Virus record (IMG/VR): IMGVR_UViG_3300008266_000002 | DNA: 64,000 bases | Direction: 5' to 3' (one strand) | Source: a virus | In this document: piece after piece, positions 3,136-50,400 of the stretch | Layout: each line of letters begins with the position of its first letter | Numbering within the stretch: the stretch's first letter is position 1 | Notes under the pieces: generated by a model | Told to the model about the DNA's origin: nothing | Databases searched by the model: none | Seen by the model: only the letters and a program-made list of their open reading frames with translations | Position numbers and translations under genes: made by a program

Positions 3136-3854
3136 TAGTTACATTCATCTCTGACACACATGGCAAACACAATCAAATCACACAAGACTTAAAAGGTGGT
3201 GACTTGCTTATTCACTCTGGTGACATCTCCTCTATGGGATATCATTATGAACTTACAGCATTCTATGAGTGGTTTGATAGTATACCAAACTACACCACAA
3301 AAGTATTCATTGCTGGGAACCATGATTGGGGATTCTTAGATGCTCACAGATACATCCTATATAAGGAAGCTAAAATGCCACAACGTACTCAAGAGCTAAT
3401 TGATTCCTATCCCAATATTCACTATCTACAAGATCAGGCTCTACAAGTTGCAATAGAAAATGAACTTACTATTAACCTATATGGAAGTCCATGGCAACCA
3501 GCGTTTAATAATTGGGCTTTTAATTCGCCAAGAAACGGAGACCAATTAAAAGAGATATGGGATAACATTCCAAATAATACTGATATCTTGATCACACACG
3601 GACCAGCTTATGGTTATTTAGATCAGGTGCTTGGACGATCCGAAAATCTAGGTTGTGAGTTGTTGGCTGAAAGAATTAAGACACTCAAACCAAAAATTCA
3701 CGTATGTGGTCATATTCATAGTGGTCACGGTTACACCTATGATAAAGATACTCACTTTATAAATGCTTCAGTACTAAACGAGTCTTACAACTATGCTAAC
3801 CGACCACTCACTATTAATTGGAACCCAGAAACCAATGATGTAGAATTTTTGTAA
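3132..3854 (+). CDS. calcineurin-like metallophosphoesterase
   Basis: DTH, GD, GNHD, ITHGP and GHIH motifs. Confidence 0.92.
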   Translation: MIVTFISDTHGKHNQITQDLKGGDLLIHSGDISSMGYHYELTAFYEWFDSIPNYTTKVFIAGNHDWGFLDAHRYILYKEAKMPQRTQELIDSYPNIHYLQDQALQVAIENELTINLYGSPWQPAFNNWAFNSPRNGDQLKEIWDNIPNNTDILITHGPAYGYLDQVLGRSENLGCELLAERIKTLKPKIHVCGHIHSGHGYTYDKDTHFINASVLNESYNYANRPLTINWNPETNDVEFL

Positions 3855-3926
3855 CTTTTTTTGTCTAACTGTTGTCTCACGTGTTTTTTTAGCGTATATT
3901 TAGTTATAATTAAAAACACACAAGCT

Positions 3927-4265
3927 ATGACAAATTATCCACCAACAGTCGAAGAGAAACTGGAGTTAGTTAATGATATATTGACTAACATCGACTACAA
4001 GTATCCAGTATACGAACATTGTGTTCGTGAAGTATTTGGTCCTATTTTCTTGCAACAATGGCTCGATGGTAAGGAGGTGGGATTTGAATTAGAAGAGTTC
4101 GAAAGATTACTAAAGTTGACAATCGCTAGAAGTCTTGTTGAAGAGATGAGAGAAGAAGGATTGATTGATACTATTGAAGATCCTGACAGAAATGATGATG
4201 TTGTATTCTTAACCGAGAAAGGAAAAAAGGTTGCTGAATTATTACATAACGTAAATTTAAACTAA
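3927..4265 (+). CDS. hypothetical protein, possible C-terminal winged helix
   Basis: ATG follows the promoter; ends in EEGLI...VFLTEKGKK. Confidence 0.6.
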   Translation: MTNYPPTVEEKLELVNDILTNIDYKYPVYEHCVREVFGPIFLQQWLDGKEVGFELEEFERLLKLTIARSLVEEMREEGLIDTIEDPDRNDDVVFLTEKGKKVAELLHNVNLN

Positions 4266-8178: not shown

Positions 8179-8493
8179 ATGGCAAAAAGATTATCGAGAG
8201 AGGAAAAAAAAGACAAAGCAATAGTTGATTTGATTAACCAAATGTTTATATTTGCAGGTCACGCAGTAACTTTTGATGACATCAAAGATCGTAAAGATGC
8301 TTGGTATAGTGAATGGACTATAACAATAGAGCAATATGAAGCATGGATGGCATGGGGTCGCAAGTACTTACAGAAAAACTTCAGGTACATGAATAAGACT
8401 TGGGCTACACGTGAGATGGCTATGATTGGTTTGAATTGGGGATTAAAGTTTGACAGAATGCCAACTCCTGAAGATTTTGATAAAATAAATTAG
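8179..8493 (+). CDS. hypothetical protein
   Basis: Packed ORF. Confidence 0.6.
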   Translation: MAKRLSREEKKDKAIVDLINQMFIFAGHAVTFDDIKDRKDAWYSEWTITIEQYEAWMAWGRKYLQKNFRYMNKTWATREMAMIGLNWGLKFDRMPTPEDFDKIN

Positions 8494-8786: not shown

Positions 8787-9047
8787 ATGCAAAACACACA
8801 AGTTTCCAGACAACTATCTCAAGAAGAAACATTAGCTAAAAAAATGACAACGGATATCTTACAAGCGCTAAGAGCTTCTGATAACCCAATGGCTATTTTA
8901 ATTGAGAGCTACATTCAAAAACAACTCGAGACTTATCGAGATGAAATCTTCGAAGCTATTGAAGGTGATCCTTTTAGTATTGATAGCAGAACTTACGAAG
9001 AGTATGAGGCTGATACACGATTAGAAAAGGAGGATCATTATGAATAG
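8787..9047 (+). CDS. hypothetical protein
   Basis: ACACAC leader before the ATG. Confidence 0.6.
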   Translation: MQNTQVSRQLSQEETLAKKMTTDILQALRASDNPMAILIESYIQKQLETYRDEIFEAIEGDPFSIDSRTYEEYEADTRLEKEDHYE

Positions 9048-11570: not shown

Positions 11571-11641
11571 TGACTTATGGTGTAATGGTAGCACTACAGA
11601 TTTTGATTCTGTCTGTCTTGGTTCGAATCCAGGTAGGTCAA
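11571..11641 (+). tRNA. tRNA-Gln(TTG)
   Basis: Full cloverleaf: TGACTTA/TAGGTCA, ACAGA-TTTTGAT-TCTGT, CTTGG-TTCGAAT-CCAGG. CCA not encoded. Confidence 0.92.
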
Positions 11642-11655
11642 CAAAAACAACAACA

Positions 11656-12840: not shown

Positions 12841-13052
12841 ATGAAGAGGATGTAGTTTTATTACAAACTTATATGATTGGTTTCTCTGATGAATTGAAAG
12901 GTGAAACAAGGGAATTCCAAGACCCAATTTTAATGAGAGCGTATGAGTTGGGAAAAGTTGATGCCTTTGTTGGTGATGATGTTAGAAGCGTAGATTATCA
13001 ATCTGATGAACATTTATTAAAACGAATTAAAAATTTGAATATTTATATATAG
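12837..13052 (+). CDS. hypothetical protein
   Basis: ATGA-coupled ORF. Confidence 0.6.
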   Translation: MNEEDVVLLQTYMIGFSDELKGETREFQDPILMRAYELGKVDAFVGDDVRSVDYQSDEHLLKRIKNLNIYI

Positions 13053-13072
13053 AATAAAAACTATTTAAGAAT

Positions 13073-13552
13073 ATGGAACTAAGAAAATTTATAAAGACCA
13101 CCATACGTGAATATTTGAATGAAAATATTCAAAATAATAAAAACATCAAAACAATAAATTTTGATGAATTATATCATGGAACAACAATGGATAGGTTTGA
13201 AGGTATATCAAAAAACGGATTTTCAATCGAAAAACAAGGTGAAAAAAGTGGTCATGGTAGTGTTCTTGGTGTGTCAATGACAGCCAATATAGAAATTGCA
13301 AAAGAACATGCAGAATGGGCGGTGGAAAAGTTTGGGGGTGAAGAATATATTGTAACTATTAATTCTAAATCATTAAAAATATTGAGTGGTAGTGATTTTG
13401 CACGTATAGATAATGACTACAATAAAGCGTTTATTTTATATAAAAATAGATTAATTGATGGTGTAGAGTTATGTGATATGGAAACTGGTGATGGATGTGA
13501 AGAATTTGAGGTTTTTGTATTTAATATTAATAAATTAAATCAATTACTTTAA
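13073..13552 (+). CDS. putative ADP-ribosyltransferase-fold protein with N-terminal leader
   Basis: Leader MELRKFIKTTIREYLNE; LYHGT...GVSMT...A..HA...EEFEVFVF pattern. Confidence 0.5.
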   Translation: MELRKFIKTTIREYLNENIQNNKNIKTINFDELYHGTTMDRFEGISKNGFSIEKQGEKSGHGSVLGVSMTANIEIAKEHAEWAVEKFGGEEYIVTINSKSLKILSGSDFARIDNDYNKAFILYKNRLIDGVELCDMETGDGCEEFEVFVFNINKLNQLL

Positions 13553-13717
13553 TTGTGTGGTGAAAAAATAAAACATAAAAATTATAACCACGAAACTTAA
13601 TACGAAGCGATAACGTAGCATTGCATATAACGTCCGATGATAAACAATCGTTTTAATGTTGTTTATCATTTGTTATATTTAGTTGAAAAATCATTTTACA
13701 AAAAAAAGAATAAAAAT

Positions 13718-13924
13718 ATGGAAAACAAAATTGAGTGGGGAAAATTAGGACCACATTACAAAAGAAAGTTTATGATTCCTGTTGGTCGTAGGAAGAGATG
13801 GTGGGAATTTTGGAAGAAGGATGAAAGTAAAAAGGCGATAGAAAAACTTATGTCTCAATATAAACAGGAATTAATATTGGGTGAGGATGGTGATATTTTT
13901 ATTCCATCAAATGACTCAAAATGA
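13718..13924 (+). CDS. cassette 1 hypothetical protein
   Basis: MENKIEWGK... with KRWWEFWKK; the stop lies inside the terminal inverted repeat. Confidence 0.6.
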   Translation: MENKIEWGKLGPHYKRKFMIPVGRRKRWWEFWKKDESKKAIEKLMSQYKQELILGEDGDIFIPSNDSK

Positions 13925-14054
13925 TTTTTTTCAATTGAATATAACGTTGAGCGTATGTGCTGTGCAGCCTTGCACGTACTTTCAACTTACAAAACAGTTT
14001 ATTGGCTGCATAGCATATACGCATTATTGTGCGTAGTGCTTTAATAATTAAACA

Positions 14055-14240
14055 ATGAGAACACCAGACGAAATAATTGACGAAATAATGAAACTGGCAA
14101 TCGAAATTGATGCACTAAAAAAAATACATTCAGAATTGCATTCAGTTGACGATTCAGAAGAATGGGAACAATCGTTTTTAACTTTATCTGTTAAAAATTC
14201 AAGATTAGATGCATTAAGGTGGGTAATGTCTTTTTCTTAG
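14055..14240 (+). CDS. cassette 2 hypothetical protein
   Basis: MRTPDEI...LRWVM; the stop overlaps the inverted repeat. Confidence 0.6.
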   Translation: MRTPDEIIDEIMKLAIEIDALKKIHSELHSVDDSEEWEQSFLTLSVKNSRLDALRWVMSFS

Positions 14241-14324
14241 CATTACGCACAACGTTTTCGGGCTTTGTGTCCGTGCCGTAATAGAAGTAGAAAAGTTCAA
14301 TTAATAACTAAAATTAAATAAAAG

Positions 14325-14666
14325 ATGAAAAGCTCAATTAAAGAACTAAAGCAGGCATGGCACAAAACCCGTGTTATGTGCAGCCTTTTTTACAAAAATG
14401 TTAAGAAAGACGTAAACGAAAGACGAGTTAAGTATTGGTTTCAACAATATTTTGAAGACAATGATTTGCACTCTGGAATATGGCAATTACACCATATCGG
14501 AGTTGTAACAAGTAAAACAGATATTGTTGTAACCATTACACTTGGAAGACCAGGATTATTGATTGGTAAAGGTGGACGAACTATTGACGAAATAACTAAA
14601 CGTCTTTCTGATTGGTTAGAAAAACCTGTCAAAATTAAGATAAATGAGTATAGTGTGTGGTCGTAA
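14325..14666 (+). CDS. cassette 3 KH-domain protein (ribosomal S3-like type II KH)
   Basis: ITLGRPGLLIGKGGRTIDEI...KPVKIKINE with a GxxG loop. Confidence 0.75.
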   Translation: MKSSIKELKQAWHKTRVMCSLFYKNVKKDVNERRVKYWFQQYFEDNDLHSGIWQLHHIGVVTSKTDIVVTITLGRPGLLIGKGGRTIDEITKRLSDWLEKPVKIKINEYSVWS

Positions 14667-14721
14667 GGTTGCACATAACGGTTCTCAGATATACGCAGTT
14701 CTAACGCAAAATTAAATAGAT

Positions 14722-14907
14722 ATGAAAAACTTAAATAATACAGACAAAACTTCGGACAACGCAGAAAAAGAATTGCGTATATCTGATGTTAGCGGACAGT
14801 TAGTTGATTTTCTAACTTGGTATATACACGAATCAGAATTTAGTAAAGATACTTATAGTATTAAATTAATTGTTGATGAATATTTAAAATCAACTAATTT
14901 ACGCTAA
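14722..14907 (+). CDS. cassette 4 hypothetical protein (start codon in the upstream hairpin loop)
   Basis: ...KELRISD|VSGQ... reads through the GTT junction; the stop is the TAA of TAAC. Confidence 0.55.
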   Translation: MKNLNNTDKTSDNAEKELRISDVSGQLVDFLTWYIHESEFSKDTYSIKLIVDEYLKSTNLR

Positions 14908-14944
14908 CTAGGATATACACACCACTCTATAACAACAAAAACAA

Positions 14945-15301
14945 ATGGAAATAAGAAGCATCACATACTCACAAGTGCAAGAGGAATTTAGTCATATCAA
15001 ACCAGACTTACTAGATACACAAGCCGTTTACTTTGGATGCTTTATAGATAATGAACTTGCTGGGATCGTATCATATGTAGAACACCCACACGTCATATAC
15101 CTTTGTCATGCATATGTGAAATCACAATACCGAAATGCAGGGATATATAAAATGCTATGGAATTACAGGGACATTCATATTAAAGATAGTAACAAACAAA
15201 CATATGCCCATTGCAATGTAGATAGCTTAAAGCACTTTATTAACAATGGGTATAGTATAGAAAAGGCCCTCTTTAAAGTAGTAAAGCACTCCTCCCAATA
15301 A
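14945..15301 (+). CDS. GNAT-family acetyltransferase
   Basis: Motif A: YVKSQYRNAGIYKML; N..S.K.F...GY. Confidence 0.75.
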   Translation: MEIRSITYSQVQEEFSHIKPDLLDTQAVYFGCFIDNELAGIVSYVEHPHVIYLCHAYVKSQYRNAGIYKMLWNYRDIHIKDSNKQTYAHCNVDSLKHFINNGYSIEKALFKVVKHSSQ

Positions 15302-17116: not shown

Positions 17117-17186
17117 AGTCAGGTGGTGTAATTGGTAACATAGGTCTTAATTGGCTTGGATGCAGGTTCGAATCCTGTCCTGACTA
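17117..17186 (+). tRNA. atypical tRNA / pseudo-tRNA (anticodon undetermined)
   Basis: AGTCAGG/CCTGACT+A, D-arm GTGT/ACAT and T-arm GCAGG-TTCGAAT-CCTGT. The anticodon arm AGGTC-TTAATT-GGCTT is weak and has a 6-nt loop. Confidence 0.65.
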
Positions 17187-17227
17187 CAAAATTAACAATA
17201 TTCACACACACAATAAAATTTAAGTCT

Positions 17228-18388
17228 ATGTCAAACGTTATTATTGCTAAAGTACAAATGGGCGCTAATGCCAAAGGTGGTCAATCTGTTAGAGCTTATG
17301 AAGCTGTTACTGGAATGGACATCACAAAAGAGATAGTTTATGCCACTTTGAAGAACGCCTACGATGCTGGTAATTGGTTAGAAAACTCTGCTGGTAAGTG
17401 GAAGCAAGTAAGTATTGCTGATGCAGAGCGCTTCTTGAAAGACCTTGAGAATCCCGTCAAATCTTCCGTCTCACAAGAGAAAAATGAAATGGCGATGTTT
17501 CTATCCACTTGCTCTGAGAAACGCCCAGAGAGCTTATTCTGTGAAGATTTAACTTGGAAATTCTTATGCCGCTCAGTGATGAGAGGTAAGAACATATTGC
17601 TTACAGGTCCTACTGGTTGTGGTAAATCACAGACTGCCATTGCGGTAGCAAAGGCCTTAGATAAACCCTTCTTCTATGTTAACTTGGGTGCTACTCAGGA
17701 TCCAAGAGGTACTCTAATTGGTAATACTCACTTCAGTAAAGATGCTGGTACTTACTTCAACGAGTCTGCCTTTGTTAAGGCAATACAAACCCCTGACACT
17801 GTGATACTTCTAGACGAGGTGTCAAGAGCACATCCAGAGGCTTGGAACATTCTTATGACAGTACTTGATCCAGGTCAAAGATACTTGAGATTAGATGAGG
17901 CTGTTAACACTCCTACAGTAAAGGTAGCAGAAGGTGTAAGCTTCATTGGTACTGCAAACATCGGTAACGAGTATACTGCAGTAAGAGTAATGGACAGAGC
18001 GTTACTTGATAGGTTTGTAATCGCAGAGATTCCTTACTTGACTATCGCTCAAGAGACCCAGTTAATCAGTCAGTTATACCCTACCTTGGATGTCACTCTT
18101 GCTAAGAATCTTGCAGAGATTGCTACTCTTACTAGAGCTGAGGTGAAGTCTGACAGTGCTAGAATACAGACTCCAATCTCCACAAGATCGATAGTAGAGA
18201 TGGCTGGTTTGATTAACGATGGCTTCTCCCTTACAGAATGTGCCGAGGTTAGTATCTACCCACTATACTCTCAGGATGGTGGTCTACAATCAGAAAGGAC
18301 CTTTGTAAAGCAATTGGTACAGAAGTTTGTTCCAGATGGAACTAGTGATAGCTTGATGGGTGATGAGAGTGTTGAGAATCCTTTCTAA
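17228..18388 (+). CDS. MoxR/CbbQ/NorQ-type AAA+ ATPase
   Basis: Walker A GPTGCGKS, Walker B ILLDEVSR, TANIG, DRALLDRF, STR. ATG at 17228. Confidence 0.92.
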   Translation: MSNVIIAKVQMGANAKGGQSVRAYEAVTGMDITKEIVYATLKNAYDAGNWLENSAGKWKQVSIADAERFLKDLENPVKSSVSQEKNEMAMFLSTCSEKRPESLFCEDLTWKFLCRSVMRGKNILLTGPTGCGKSQTAIAVAKALDKPFFYVNLGATQDPRGTLIGNTHFSKDAGTYFNESAFVKAIQTPDTVILLDEVSRAHPEAWNILMTVLDPGQRYLRLDEAVNTPTVKVAEGVSFIGTANIGNEYTAVRVMDRALLDRFVIAEIPYLTIAQETQLISQLYPTLDVTLAKNLAEIATLTRAEVKSDSARIQTPISTRSIVEMAGLINDGFSLTECAEVSIYPLYSQDGGLQSERTFVKQLVQKFVPDGTSDSLMGDESVENPF

Positions 18389-20969: not shown

Positions 20970-21360
20970 CAATCATATAGGGGGCCTACCTAAAGTGTGT
21001 GTGATAGGGGTAGGCATACATTAGGGGTGCCATAGGGTACCCCTCCCCATATAGTAACCCGTATATACGCAGGGGATCCCTCCCATGTTTTTAGCGTTAA
21101 AACCGGTGTTTTTAGGGGGGGTATAGGGTGCGATAATTACGTGAAAACCGAGAAGGGAAGGTCGATATGCCGCCAGCTAAACGCGTATATATTGCGCGCA
21201 TAATTTTTTTTCCTATAGGCGATCGACACTTGGGGTACACTGCGTGTAAGTGTATATCCTCCCCCCTATGATGCCTATTACCCCCTACTATCCCCCCACT
21301 ACACCTACTACCCCCCCTATTACCCCCTTTCTACTTGACAACTGACAACGCAACAAGGGA
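20970..21360. other. GC-rich non-coding block with G-tracts followed by C-tracts
   Basis: No ORF. G-runs lie at 20979-21129; five C5-7 runs lie at 21261-21327. Confidence 0.6.
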
Positions 21361-30031: not shown

Positions 30032-30404
30032 GGGGATGAATGGAATCGACAGATAGATGCGCTCTTTGAAATGATGCAAGTAAGGTTAGATGGAAACCTT
30101 TGACGACCTATCGCAAAAATATTCGGCAACGAACTTTCTGATTGGACCTGGGAAGATGCTATGGCATTCGTAGGTGCAGATTTAGCAATTGCAGCTTAGT
30201 CTCTCTCGTATCACTCACGAGACCTATTAAATGAAGTGAACCAACCGCTTTTGTAATTTGAGCTTGTCAAATAGCCTACAGTTTGCAAGTAGGAGTAGCA
30301 ATACAAACTTGATATTTTGTTCGTTAAGAAAAACGTACTAAACTTGTGAATGAATTTTACTTGATCGACTAGACTGGACGTGGGTTCGAATCCCACCATC
30401 TCCA
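30032..30404 (+). ncRNA. ssrA: tmRNA
   Basis: GGGGATG/CATCTCC-A acceptor with G3.U70; GGAATCGAC; T-arm GTGGG-TTCGAAT-CCCAC; tag ORF 30125-30199 GNELSDWTWEDAMAFVGADLAIAA*. Confidence 0.92.
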
Positions 30405-30486
30405 CAAAAAAAGCAAACGTGTTGCCTACACAAAAAAAAGGTAGTATATTTATTATTATTAGTTAATTAACAAAACAATTTTTAAA

Positions 30487-47406: not shown

Positions 47407-50400
47407 TGAGATTTCCCGATCAATCCTTAATAGGCGATTTAAACGACAACACAACACCAAGAATAACTACTGGTGTATTTCCGTCTATACCTACATCAAC
47501 AACAGACGAAAATGATACAGTTTATGATCTACTACCCGTAATCATAAATCGACCACCAGTCATTACTAAACCAATAACAGAAGCTTCAACACCACAGATA
47601 AAACCTTACTCAACTGCTAATGCAACTGGAGACTTTATGTACCTCTTTCCGGATGGTACAGTGAAAGTTAATATAGGTTCAACTTTTAAAATTGCTATTG
47701 AAGCCGAGCAACCAAATATACTAAATGTAGAAAATGGTATTTTAAAACTCATACCACCAAGCTCTAGTTTAACATTTATCTGGAGGAAAGATAGTGAAAT
47801 TTTAAACTCATCAACAAGCGACTCACTACAATCATCAGTAGTTGTGAGTGGTAGTGTAATTGAATTCAATAGTGTACAACCATCTTCTGCAGGAACATAC
47901 TTATGTGAAATTTCAAATGATATAGGTACAACAATAAGTGAGACAATTACCTTAGAAATACTTAATCTAGATTTTGATACGTTATTCTATAGAAATCTTG
48001 TTAAAAATCCAACAGGAGCTGATGGAGTAAACGAATGGAATGCAAATAATTCTGATTTTATATCGAAACCATTTTCAAAAATACCATCACAAGATTTTAT
48101 ACGACCTAATAGAGTAGATTTATTTGGATATACAATGGATATGATGCATCCAAGACCTTATCAAATTGATATGGGTGCTATTCAAAATTTTGATATGACT
48201 CAAACGTATCTCAATAATCCTTACTATTTTACTCGCACGAGATATAAATTTGATCGTAAGGGTGGTACATTCCAAGTAAGAGCATATCAAGATATTGACC
48301 TTACGGACATTATACCTTTGATAAAAGGAGGTATATATGGTGTCGAAGGTGTTAGGGCATTGTTTAGTTGCTACATTGGTAATGGTTTATCCCAATATAT
48401 TCCGGTAGAAGAATTAGTTGATCCAAGACGCAGATTAGATCCATTAAGCTACTATCAATCGTATGCAAGGTTAAGTTTAGTAAACTTCCTTACAGCAGGT
48501 CCTGCAGATAAAGTTGTAGAAAAAGCATATGTAACAATTGAAGAATTTGATAATGAAACGAGAGTGCCAACAACTCTGTTAGTTAGTAATCAAGGCGCCA
48601 CCCAAACATATAATTCACGTATTACTCTCTCAGATCCATGGCAAAAACGTATATACGACCCAGCTTTTCAAGTAAGCGTGTATCCTATCGATATATATGG
48701 ACTTCAAGAAACATCGCCAAACGACCCTAGAGACCTGATATTAAATGTAGCGAATAATTTGTATCCAGATCAGCGATATCGATACACATATGGACAGTAT
48801 GTGGAATTTAATAAACAAATTATTGAGAGACTTAATCCAAAGACAACTAAGGTTCGAATTTCGTTAAATTTTGATTCTACTGACTGGAGAATTTTTGAAA
48901 CGTATACGGACTTAGTAAATGATGCGGATGAAATTTTTGAAGTATTGAGTTGGGAGACACCGTACAAAAAAAATAAATTTAGTAAGCCACCACTTAGTCC
49001 AACATATAAACCAATATATCAACGTATAAAGGAGTATTCTGGAAGTCTAGATAAGACGCCTTCAGAATTTTTCCCTACTGCACAAGATCCACGAGTGATG
49101 GTGACTGGATTAAACTTGGCTCTATTACCAATATTAACACAACAAAACCAAGTCACAGACTATTATACTGGAATATCTTTAGTAAGAAATCTAACTCCGA
49201 CTTCATCGTTCCCTTCTGGATTAACTGGCACTCGAATATATGATCCATTAGGAACACTCTCAAAAGCATTAACGGTGACATTCAAATATTATAGTGAAGG
49301 AGTACCAACACTAGATAATCTAGGTTACTTACAAACACGAGATAGGATAGAGTTACGATTAAAATTATCAAGTCAGCCAGGATCACCAAATACACAAAAT
49401 GCATCGTCATTTGTAGACTATCAAATCACCAATGGCGCATTATTTCCATTTGTGCAAAACTCAGTTATTTCCTATGAAGGAGCTATAGAAAATGCTATTA
49501 CTCCAAACGATATACAATCATTTACACCATTTTTTGATTATGTTAGATATAGGTTATTAGATCCATATCAATCAGATAGAAATTCACGTACACCTAATTT
49601 TAGCACAACTGCAAATACTTTAGCTGATAATGGTTATGTAGTTTGGGGAATGAGTGGTAGCATATCACCATCACAATATCCAGAGATAGAAAGACCATGG
49701 ATAAATAAAGCAAGGTATATAATAACTTTTGGGATAGTAAATGCTTCCAATCCATCAACCCCTCCTGGTACACAAACAAGATTAACCACTAGTCAAATAG
49801 GAGGGTCTCAAAATGATACACAAGCCATCCAGTCGTATTATTTAGACTTTGATTTTACAAATCCAGCAGATACAAAGGTAACATTGGCTAGACCAGCTAG
49901 TTTTATTTCACAATCTATCAATGTAGGTAATTTATTTTCTACTTCCGTAGTAGCAGGATCTTCTGGTAGTAAGTATATTGGTAAGGGTACTACAACCAAT
50001 CCAATTGAATTAGAACACTCAATTGATCCATATGGTGTATTACAATCCACAATACCGGCTGAGTTTAAGTTTACCTCTATGAATAATGGTGGCTTTGGAT
50101 TGGGTGGCTATCAATATCAGTTTGAAGTTAGAGAAAGATCCCTTATTAAATTAATTACAGCTTTACATGTTAATCTTGGTAATTACACAAGAGTATCTTT
50201 ACGAGCTAATCGATACTATCAAAGTAGAGTTGAGCAAGCGTTATCTTTTTACGATAGTGAAATTCAATTTGCACAAAATAATCCAACTTTAAACGTATAT
50301 ACACTAAACGGGGTAACTGTTAATGACTTGCAAGATTTTCGTCAACAGTTGGTGGATTATGCATACGATATTCAAGAGGTGCCAAATCAAACTCAATATG

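Follow-up and report, generated by a model that had tools for sequence, protein, structure and literature searches.

How do four small genes come to lie one behind the other in a phage genome, each of them enclosed between its own pair of complementary arms and separated from the next by a hairpin? The question is raised by positions 13632-14908 of IMG/VR virus record IMGVR_UViG_3300008266_000002, analyzed here as one strand of 64,000 nt (the whole 64-kb stretch is "the window" in what follows). A preliminary description of this DNA proposed an integron-like array of gene cassettes, shuffled by a site-specific system with the recombinase elsewhere in the phage or host. Our answer stays close to that proposal. 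Judging from sequence comparison, we give a probability of roughly three in four to 13632-14908 being an orphan four-cassette array of an integron-like gene-capture system of large phages.

The array is about 1.3 kb long and holds four small single-gene cassettes with hairpin-forming sites between them. The minimum-free-energy fold of 13600-14950 shows 13632-14908 as a continuous chain of eight stems, in the order B0, A1, B1, A2, B2, A3, B3, A4, in which four local hairpins (B) alternate with four long-range stems (A), each of these closing a GTTA...gene...TAAC unit. Could such a chain arise by chance? In a helix scan of the whole window, the scores 46, 41, 39, 36, 34, and 33 all fall within 13671-14786, and the remaining 62 kb hold only about two helices of similar score. 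Since helices of that strength are concentrated in the array and rare elsewhere, chance is excluded; the structure is far beyond it and is confined to 13632-14908. The same fold is about 50 kcal/mol better on the + strand (-337 kcal/mol) than on the - strand (-288 kcal/mol). Every gene of the window is encoded on the + strand, the GC fraction is about 35%, and GC skew is positive throughout the 64 kb, which is consistent with the + strand being more often single-stranded. The array, its open reading frames (ORFs), and its immediate neighbors are these:

13073..13552, + strand: upstream gene, weakly PARP/ADP-ribosyltransferase-like (Pfam PARP E = 0.0039, below cut-off), with conserved N-terminus MELRKFIKTTIREYLNE
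13618..13631, + strand: end of the upstream unit, a 3′ arm with TAAC core (GCATTGCATATAAC) that bounds the array on the left; a related locus (L164) has this 3′ arm without a difference, and homology with it ends exactly after TAAC
13632..13671, + strand: hairpin B0, the folded site opening cassette 1; spacer GTCC, 12-bp stem 13636-13647 with 13659-13670, invariant loop TCGTTTTAATG, 1-nt spacer T
13672..13945, + strand: cargo unit A1; 5′ arm 13672-13696, ORF1 13718-13924 (68 aa, function unknown), 3′ arm 13919-13945
13946..14025, + strand: hairpin B1, opening cassette 2; spacer GTTGA, 19-bp stem 13951-13969 with 14004-14022, 34-nt loop; helix score 46, the best of the window
14026..14253, + strand: cargo unit A2; 5′ arm 14026-14040, ORF2 14055-14240 (61 aa, function unknown), 3′ arm 14239-14253
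14254..14372, + strand: hairpin B2, opening cassette 3; spacer GTTTT, stem 14259-14277 with 14354-14371, spacer T
14373..14679, + strand: cargo unit A3; 5′ arm 14373-14387, 3′ arm 14665-14679; KH-domain protein, ORF 14325-14666 (Pfam KH_2 E = 4.6e-8)
14680..14787, + strand: hairpin B3, opening cassette 4; spacer GGTTC, 18-bp stem 14685-14702 with 14769-14786, spacer T
14788..14908, + strand: cargo unit A4; 5′ arm 14788-14810, 3′ arm 14887-14908; ORF4 14722-14907
14909..14944, + strand: terminal (attI-like) site and leader, TAAC and then TAGGATATACACACC...; aligns with 11 recombinase-proximal junctions of relatives and with locus L184
14945..15301, + strand: GNAT acetyltransferase gene (Pfam Acetyltransf_1 E = 2.9e-6), occupying the position of the recombinase in relatives

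The four arm pairs quoted in the preliminary description are all where it placed them, and it was right that stop codons overlap the terminal repeats: all four lie in or touch the 3′ arms. It had described the separators as AAC-[hairpin]-GTT sites. These are present but were under-described, each spacer being itself a strong hairpin (B0-B3). Its arms are correct but its unit boundaries cut through two ORFs, with starts at 14325 and 14722, each of which lies wholly inside one hairpin-plus-gene cassette (cassettes 3 and 4). The B2 loop contains the ATG (14325) of the KH-domain ORF, which has an alternative start at 14376, and ORF4 has its ATG (14722) and its first 22 codons in the B3 loop. The core of unit A2 is degenerate (ATTG...CAAC), and the B1 stem has two G.T pairs and no A.C. 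The orthologue of ORF1 in L164 has 49% amino acid identity, and its arms differ from those of the window yet pair, a change of TA to GG being answered by one of TA to CC.

How general is this anatomy? A strand-symmetric search reports 401 GTTA...TAAC units in 1.27 Mb of array loci (numbered here with the prefix L), with a median span of 273 nt. The stretches between consecutive units, 132 non-redundant junctions from loci L106-L245, run in the order TAAC, 5′ spacer, near-perfect stem, loop, 3′ spacer, GTTA. The 5′ spacer has 4-5 nt in 116 of them (GGTT, GTTTT, GTCC, and similar), and as for the 3′ spacer, 93 junctions have only a T and 28 have 2 nt. In form this is like an attC site, an R′′-L′′...L′-R′ imperfect palindrome of 57-141 nt with AAC and GTT cores; there are 40-128 nt between the cores of the junctions, and the 7-mers at the R′/R′′ positions match GTTRRRY only sometimes. 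Junction lengths cluster at 40, ~79, and ~117 nt, and stems have 12 bp in the 40-nt class and 17-24 bp in the longer classes, the window hairpins having 12-19 bp. Across the 132 junctions the lengths of the hairpin modules are quantised, in steps of ~38-39 nt.

Some loci (L121, L151, L115, L184, and L270) also have empty GTTA...TAAC hairpins, with a 9-bp stem around the TCGTTTTAATG loop and no gene. Because these share the loop of the short hairpins, long-range arm stems and short hairpins look like one structural family, with the cargo carried in the apical loop. Some 40-nt hairpins in L180, L190, L215, and L265 are hybrids in which a 5′ arm from one family and a 3′ arm from another, unpaired, meet at TCGTTTTAATG, which suggests that exchange occasionally takes place in the loop and not solely at the cores. 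In L184 (as oriented, 3400-3530 and 3830-3950), strings resembling a tRNA T-arm (GGTTCGAnTCC) occur within a cassette and also in the loop of a hairpin; no tRNA is called for these strings by ARAGORN.

Is the pairing under selection, and on which strand? We observe that in 77 hairpins retrieved via the TCGTTTTAATG loop 11 of the 12 stem pairs covary, with 178 compensatory cells versus 38.9 ± 5 in shuffles, and that slid controls collapse. The mismatches were counted on stems detected strand-symmetrically. On the sense strand, the long-range arms of the 401 units have 474 G.T versus 47 A.C mismatches, the hairpin stems have 215 versus 9, and the window stems alone have 6 versus 1. This excess of G.T over A.C (10:1 to 24:1) indicates that the sense strand folds on itself, and it excludes duplex terminal repeats. 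Pairing is thus selected in the single-stranded coding strand, either as DNA or as RNA.

A system for moving cassettes predicts something more specific, namely that related arrays differ by whole cassettes and that the differences end at the cores. The comparison of related phages that the preliminary description had suggested gives this result. Loci L277 and L278, which come from different samples, are 100% identical over 1229 nt from TAAC onward and unrelated before it, and L269 and L270 are 99.65% identical over 4850 nt from TAAC onward and again unrelated before it, one of the two having an empty hairpin at the position of a gene in the other. The variable segment of L277/L278 is flanked by TAAC on both sides, so that a cassette consists of the hairpin first and then the gene. 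Between the identical flanks of L119 and L192, one cassette is replaced by two, and L164 has orthologues of the window units in a different order, with homology ending at TAAC. Over all loci, homology blocks terminate sharply at TAAC and GTTA, and the ends of BLAST high-scoring segment pairs pile up at the cores: counted from the G of GTTA, position +3 has 91 such ends and positions -1 to +2 have only six. Near-identical locus pairs with a clean indel are few, and two (L209/L223) are unrelated in-gene indels. Taken with the recombinase found downstream of the arrays in relatives, the cassette differences at TAAC, the reordering in L164, and the sharp ends of homology all support the site-specific shuffling first proposed.

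Which recombinase? Of 50 motif-bearing records, 12 have one intact tyrosine recombinase (Pfam PF00589) of 265-295 aa, and in all 12 it lies directly 3′ of the last unit and on the same strand. A junction reading ..TAAC and then TA..TATAT.. precedes the recombinase, evident in 11 of the 12 (L254 differs). An independent sample, 17 loci retrieved via the recombinase alone, gives the same picture: all 15 loci that have the recombinase 5′ end and upstream sequence show TAAC and TA..TATAT about 50-60 nt before the ATG, and arrays lie upstream wherever the sequence suffices, and none downstream. We take TAAC followed by TAnnnTATAT as the form of the terminal site in relatives.

The enzyme has a SAM-like and a catalytic domain. 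Its best NCBIfam match is archaeal XerA, below cut-off, and it aligns with the Pyrococcus abyssi XerA (4a8e) in one stretch, end to end. The models TIGR02249 and NF011946 also score below their cut-offs, each of them in two separate stretches, and the recombinase is without the ~48 aa that lie between residues 182 and 258 of IntI4, at the IntI-specific insert. By these alignments the array-linked enzyme is of Xer type and not an integron integrase. Given that it has no IntI insert and that it aligns to XerA in a single stretch, the system is not an integron in the strict sense. What remains is the integron-likeness first proposed, with a Xer-type enzyme and a folded strand that is the coding one.

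The window array itself has no such gene. The search for a recombinase that the preliminary description had advised finds the Xer-type enzyme beside the arrays of relatives, but tblastn finds no tyrosine recombinase in the 64-kb window (E > 0.08). After the last TAAC, the terminal site and leader (14909-14944) run straight into the GNAT gene (14945-15301). Locus L184 has the same terminal site, a stump of about 22 codons of the recombinase N-terminus, and then the same GNAT (70% amino acid identity). No recombinase in the window, a terminal site running into GNAT, and the stump in L184 together argue that the window array is an orphan, with GNAT at what was probably the recombinase position. 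It is also partly decayed. The upstream gene 13073..13552 is a degenerate first unit that retains the 3′ arm only, its L164 orthologue having both arms (8237-8250 and 8953-8966), and ORF4 is chimeric. In tblastn comparisons residues 23-61 of ORF4 have 79% identity to L190, and residues 1-27 match other loci; the ORF is best read as a start module from the hairpin loop (residues 1-22, common to several loci) joined to a fragment (23-61) of a longer ORF. That longer ORF encodes ~170 aa in L190 (2350-2900, - strand), and the 3′ arm of the ORF4 unit is complementary to internal coding sequence there. Modules with 82-94% identity to B3 are present in ~17 other phage loci and in the phage LR756500.1, and the homology stops at ..TAAC and GTTA.

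Where else do such arrays occur? Their architecture is present in many large phage contigs that are unrelated. A DNA search of isolated and GenBank phages reports a single short match, to LR756500.1. This unrelated 462-kb phage, whose genome is ordinary in other respects, carries a single array of 4.3 kb built in the same way, and it does not have the AAA ATPase of the window (17228-18385). Between its array and that of the window, non-coding junction pieces are 75-85% identical and the ORFs are different. The 462-kb record has no intact copy of the recombinase; at 48608-48808 (-), ~350 kb from the array, there is a 72-aa fragment 46% identical to recombinase residues 36-107. At least 120 IMG/VR stretches have an exact copy of a 23-mer from B0, with several copies in some contigs and with contigs of up to 460 kb among them, and in bacterial genomes the 23-mer is found only in 5 short contigs of metagenome-assembled genomes within 596 Gb. 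Since it is common in IMG/VR and nearly absent from bacterial genomes, the element is one of phages. The AAA ATPase leads to plenty of relatives, none with an array near that gene, so synteny could not be used; protein-based locus searches with the KH-domain ORF and with the ADP-ribosyltransferase-like ORF found no relatives.

Can all of this be explained in some other way? The best surviving alternative to a gene-capture system is that the stems act in RNA. The cistrons of a polycistronic mRNA would each lie inside a long-range stem, with hairpins between them, for processing, stability, or insulation; shuffling of the modules would involve nothing more than ordinary homologous recombination between conserved hairpins, and the recombinase would have some other job. 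The RNase III stems around rRNAs and in the T7 early mRNA provide a model. Several of our observations suit this explanation well: G.U outnumber A.C by 10-24:1 on the sense strand, which is the transcribed one, the + strand fold is the more stable by ~50 kcal/mol, the stems covary, stop codons lie in 3′ arms and start codons in hairpin loops, and some homologous exchange is suggested by the hybrids whose arms meet at the conserved loop. Indeed, the G.U bias made us at first rate it a little better than even. An action in RNA leaves unexplained, however, why a tyrosine recombinase stands right after the last unit in every examined case, why phages that are 100% identical downstream diverge abruptly at TAAC beside the recombinase gene, and why 4-nt cores and asymmetric spacers are conserved while stems vary freely; nor does any Rfam family match the array region. 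Because of the recombinase adjacency and the exact breakpoints, we now consider it unlikely as the whole explanation. An RNA role may coexist with a DNA role.

The second alternative, regulatory cassettes of the early-promoter stem-loop (PeSL) type, in which stem-loops combining promoter and terminator sit in a hyperplastic region of a T4-like phage, fares markedly worse, and we hold it to be quite improbable. Here too shuffling and mini-circles would come from homologous recombination, with no dedicated recombinase, and both are documented (PMC2839356, PMC4122927). Conserved non-coding modules do flank variable small ORFs in an accessory region, relatives of the window's phage do not have the array in the syntenic place, and a few leaders have TTG-N20-TAnnTTTG. 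Against this, TAnnTTTG (the host-type -7 motif of Bacteroidota) is not enriched in cassette leaders, 1.28/kb versus a background of 1.0/kb, and is found in only 9 of the 132 hairpins and in none of the window cassettes. The hairpins are also without T-runs, and none follow the stems, breakpoints fall at a 4-nt core and not anywhere along the repeats, and PeSLs neither enclose genes in long-range stems nor have a linked recombinase. Finally, miniature inverted-repeat transposable elements (MITEs) inserted independently by a transposase acting on duplex ends would account for inverted repeats with a GTTA start and a TAAC end around each unit, but can be set aside as highly improbable, as a transposase would need conserved ends and the arms differ between units while covarying within them, a 10:1 asymmetry of G.T to A.C is unexpected for duplex repeats, no target-site duplication is seen, and the linked enzyme is a tyrosine recombinase.

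How would an integron-like gene-capture system work with these parts? A cassette comprises, in order, a folded site (spacer of 4-5 nt, hairpin, 1-nt spacer), the GTTA core, the 5′ arm, the gene, and the 3′ arm ending in TAAC, and in relatives the array ends at the terminal site, followed by the co-oriented gene of the 265-295 aa Xer-type recombinase. We propose that the sense strand, once single-stranded, would fold, and that the recombinase would exchange strands at or beside the TAAC core. Cassettes would leave as circles and enter at the terminal site next to the recombinase. Once a cassette is circular, its two arms would close into a long stem below the hairpin, giving a bipartite attC-like site, and this closure would explain why the first 15-25 bp of a unit are the reverse complement of its end. 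The junction sites predicted for circles of the four window cassettes have -21 to -28.5 kcal/mol versus -12 to -18 kcal/mol in the array context (DNA parameters). In the phage of the window the recombinase gene would have been lost, with GNAT now standing after the terminal site, and the array would be mobile only with a recombinase supplied in trans.

A number of observations weigh against such a system. To begin with, of the five array-bearing phage records that are nearly complete, three have no intact recombinase, and its absence from the window counts against activity of the array on its own. The G.T bias would be equally expected from selection on mRNA structure, so that an RNA role for the stems is possible. 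Neighboring arms in the array pair only via the 4-bp core (observed extension 1.30 versus 1.31 in shuffles, p = 0.53), which would make a folded excision site weak, unless the own-arm stem and the adjacent hairpin act jointly. From the same result it follows that the long complementarity belongs to the cassette's own two ends, as the preliminary description had it when it noted 15-25 bp instead of about 7. Not every exchange is at a core either, since some hybrid hairpins are joined at the invariant loop, and in the L106/L126 swap the right breakpoint lies within an ORF. And the comparison sequences are mostly metagenome assemblies, in which long-range linkage across repeats could be chimeric, even if the junction k-mers must still exist in the reads.

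Around the array, the upstream gene deserves a comment. Its leader and N-terminus (13025-13123) are 87% identical to L164, L239, and L175. The same stretch, comprising the leader and ~17 codons of ORF 13073, has 87% DNA identity to at least 17 other phage loci in all, and the remainder of the protein differs. ORF 13073 thus seems to be a conserved N-terminal module fused to variable bodies, and, as a guess, the MELRKFIKTTIREYLNE module may serve as a tag for targeting or cleavage, like those of packaged phage proteins. An Rfam scan of the window reports no family that matches the array, only a transfer-messenger RNA (tmRNA) and two tRNAs, as in large phages. The phage-borne tmRNA is at 30032-30407 (Rfam, 71.6 bits). 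The tRNA loci are at 11571-11642 and 17117-17187; a tRNA-Gln is present, and one locus, overlapping the start of the AAA ATPase ORF, is given an odd anticodon by ARAGORN. Palindromes of G-runs (GGGGGTATCCCCC and relatives) recur in the window (21113-21130 with 21302-21319) and in relatives of this phage (L003 2480-2528, L004 2071-2119, L008 11476-11546), outside the cassette system.

What would a gene-capture system of this kind mean? On balance, and by a narrow preference, we favor a broader view in which large phages, probably of Bacteroidota, carry a gene-capture platform of their own, analogous to the integron and possibly of independent origin. In such a platform, a minimal Xer-type recombinase would act on coding-strand hairpins, cassettes would be added at a terminal site beside its own gene, and the 15-25 bp of own-end complementarity would pair the two ends beforehand, so that the right partners are joined on excision. 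The platform would spread small accessory genes among unrelated phages, and the window would hold a fossil array. Searches of the literature turned up no account of phage cassette arrays run by a Xer enzyme. The textbook example of gene capture and reordering is the integron, a bacterial device run by one specialized integrase. If the broader view is true, giant phages of virulent type have a parallel device made of a plain Xer-type recombinase, coding-strand hairpins, and long own-end pairing, and this device explains the exchange of single genes between hyperplastic accessory regions of unrelated large-phage lineages. It would be a second, simpler case of recombination at folded single-stranded DNA sites, relevant to the evolution of IntI from Xer (PMC4792948), and it would provide a minimal recombinase-plus-site pair that is directly testable. 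The window alone is more modest: four small genes in an array that has no recombinase, with a chimeric fragment as one of the four.

It is useful to compare this system with those already described. Clusters of attC sites lacking integrases (CALINs) have been found in phages with the canonical attC models of IntegronFinder and HattCI, in a few virulent phages, and some are recombined by IntI1 (PMC9892861). The window shares with these the attC-like clusters without an integrase in a phage; Xer, jumbo phages of Bacteroidota, and sense-strand sites have no mention in PMC9892861. The PeSLs of T4-type phages (PMC2839356, PMC4122927) are alike in that conserved intergenic stem-loops flank variable small genes of hyperplastic regions, that exchange occurs at the modules, and that circles are proposed as vectors. 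They differ in being a promoter plus a terminator moved by homologous recombination, whereas the phage array has no host-type promoter signal and has gene-enclosing arms, fixed 4-nt cores, and a linked recombinase.

The closest likeness is with integrons and CALINs. In both there are rows of mostly single-gene cassettes, with imperfect-palindrome sites that have AAC...GTT cores between them; the structure of the sites is conserved and their sequence is free; the first bases of a cassette are complementary to its own far end; and a tyrosine recombinase of the Xer/IntI group lies beside the terminal site where cassette content changes. An attI-like insertion site can be recognized as such in the relatives only (99.65-100% identical from TAAC onward), and the window keeps the site at 14909-14944. 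Orphan arrays are common, as are CALINs, which have at least two attC sites in a few kb without an integrase close by; structurally, the window has four sites and no recombinase.

The differences are as many. The recombinase of the phage system has 265-295 aa and no IntI insert, and it is co-oriented with the cargo and downstream of it. The folded strand is the coding strand, whereas canonical attC sites fold the bottom strand. The stems are near-perfect, with no conserved extrahelical bases, and the asymmetry of the site comes from the spacers, 4-5 nt versus 1 nt. The R-box core has 4 bp in the array, and own-end complementarity extends over 15-25 bp versus 6-7 bp in integrons. The carrier is a large phage and not a bacterial chromosome or plasmid. 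In a classical integron, the bottom strand, which is the recombinogenic one, presents the array, then the terminal site, and then the integrase in sense direction. The folded strand of the phage system has this same order, with the hairpin 5′ of the cargo, but here the cargo is in sense on that strand, unlike in integrons.

Finally, the attP(+) hairpin of the CTX phage, used by XerCD, is a site made by intrastrand folding of one strand. The two cases are alike in combining a Xer-family recombinase with a site from a folded single strand, which in the phage system we infer. They differ in that CTX brings a whole filamentous phage genome into the host dif site by means of host enzymes, whereas here a double-stranded DNA phage would maintain a cassette array with a recombinase of its own.

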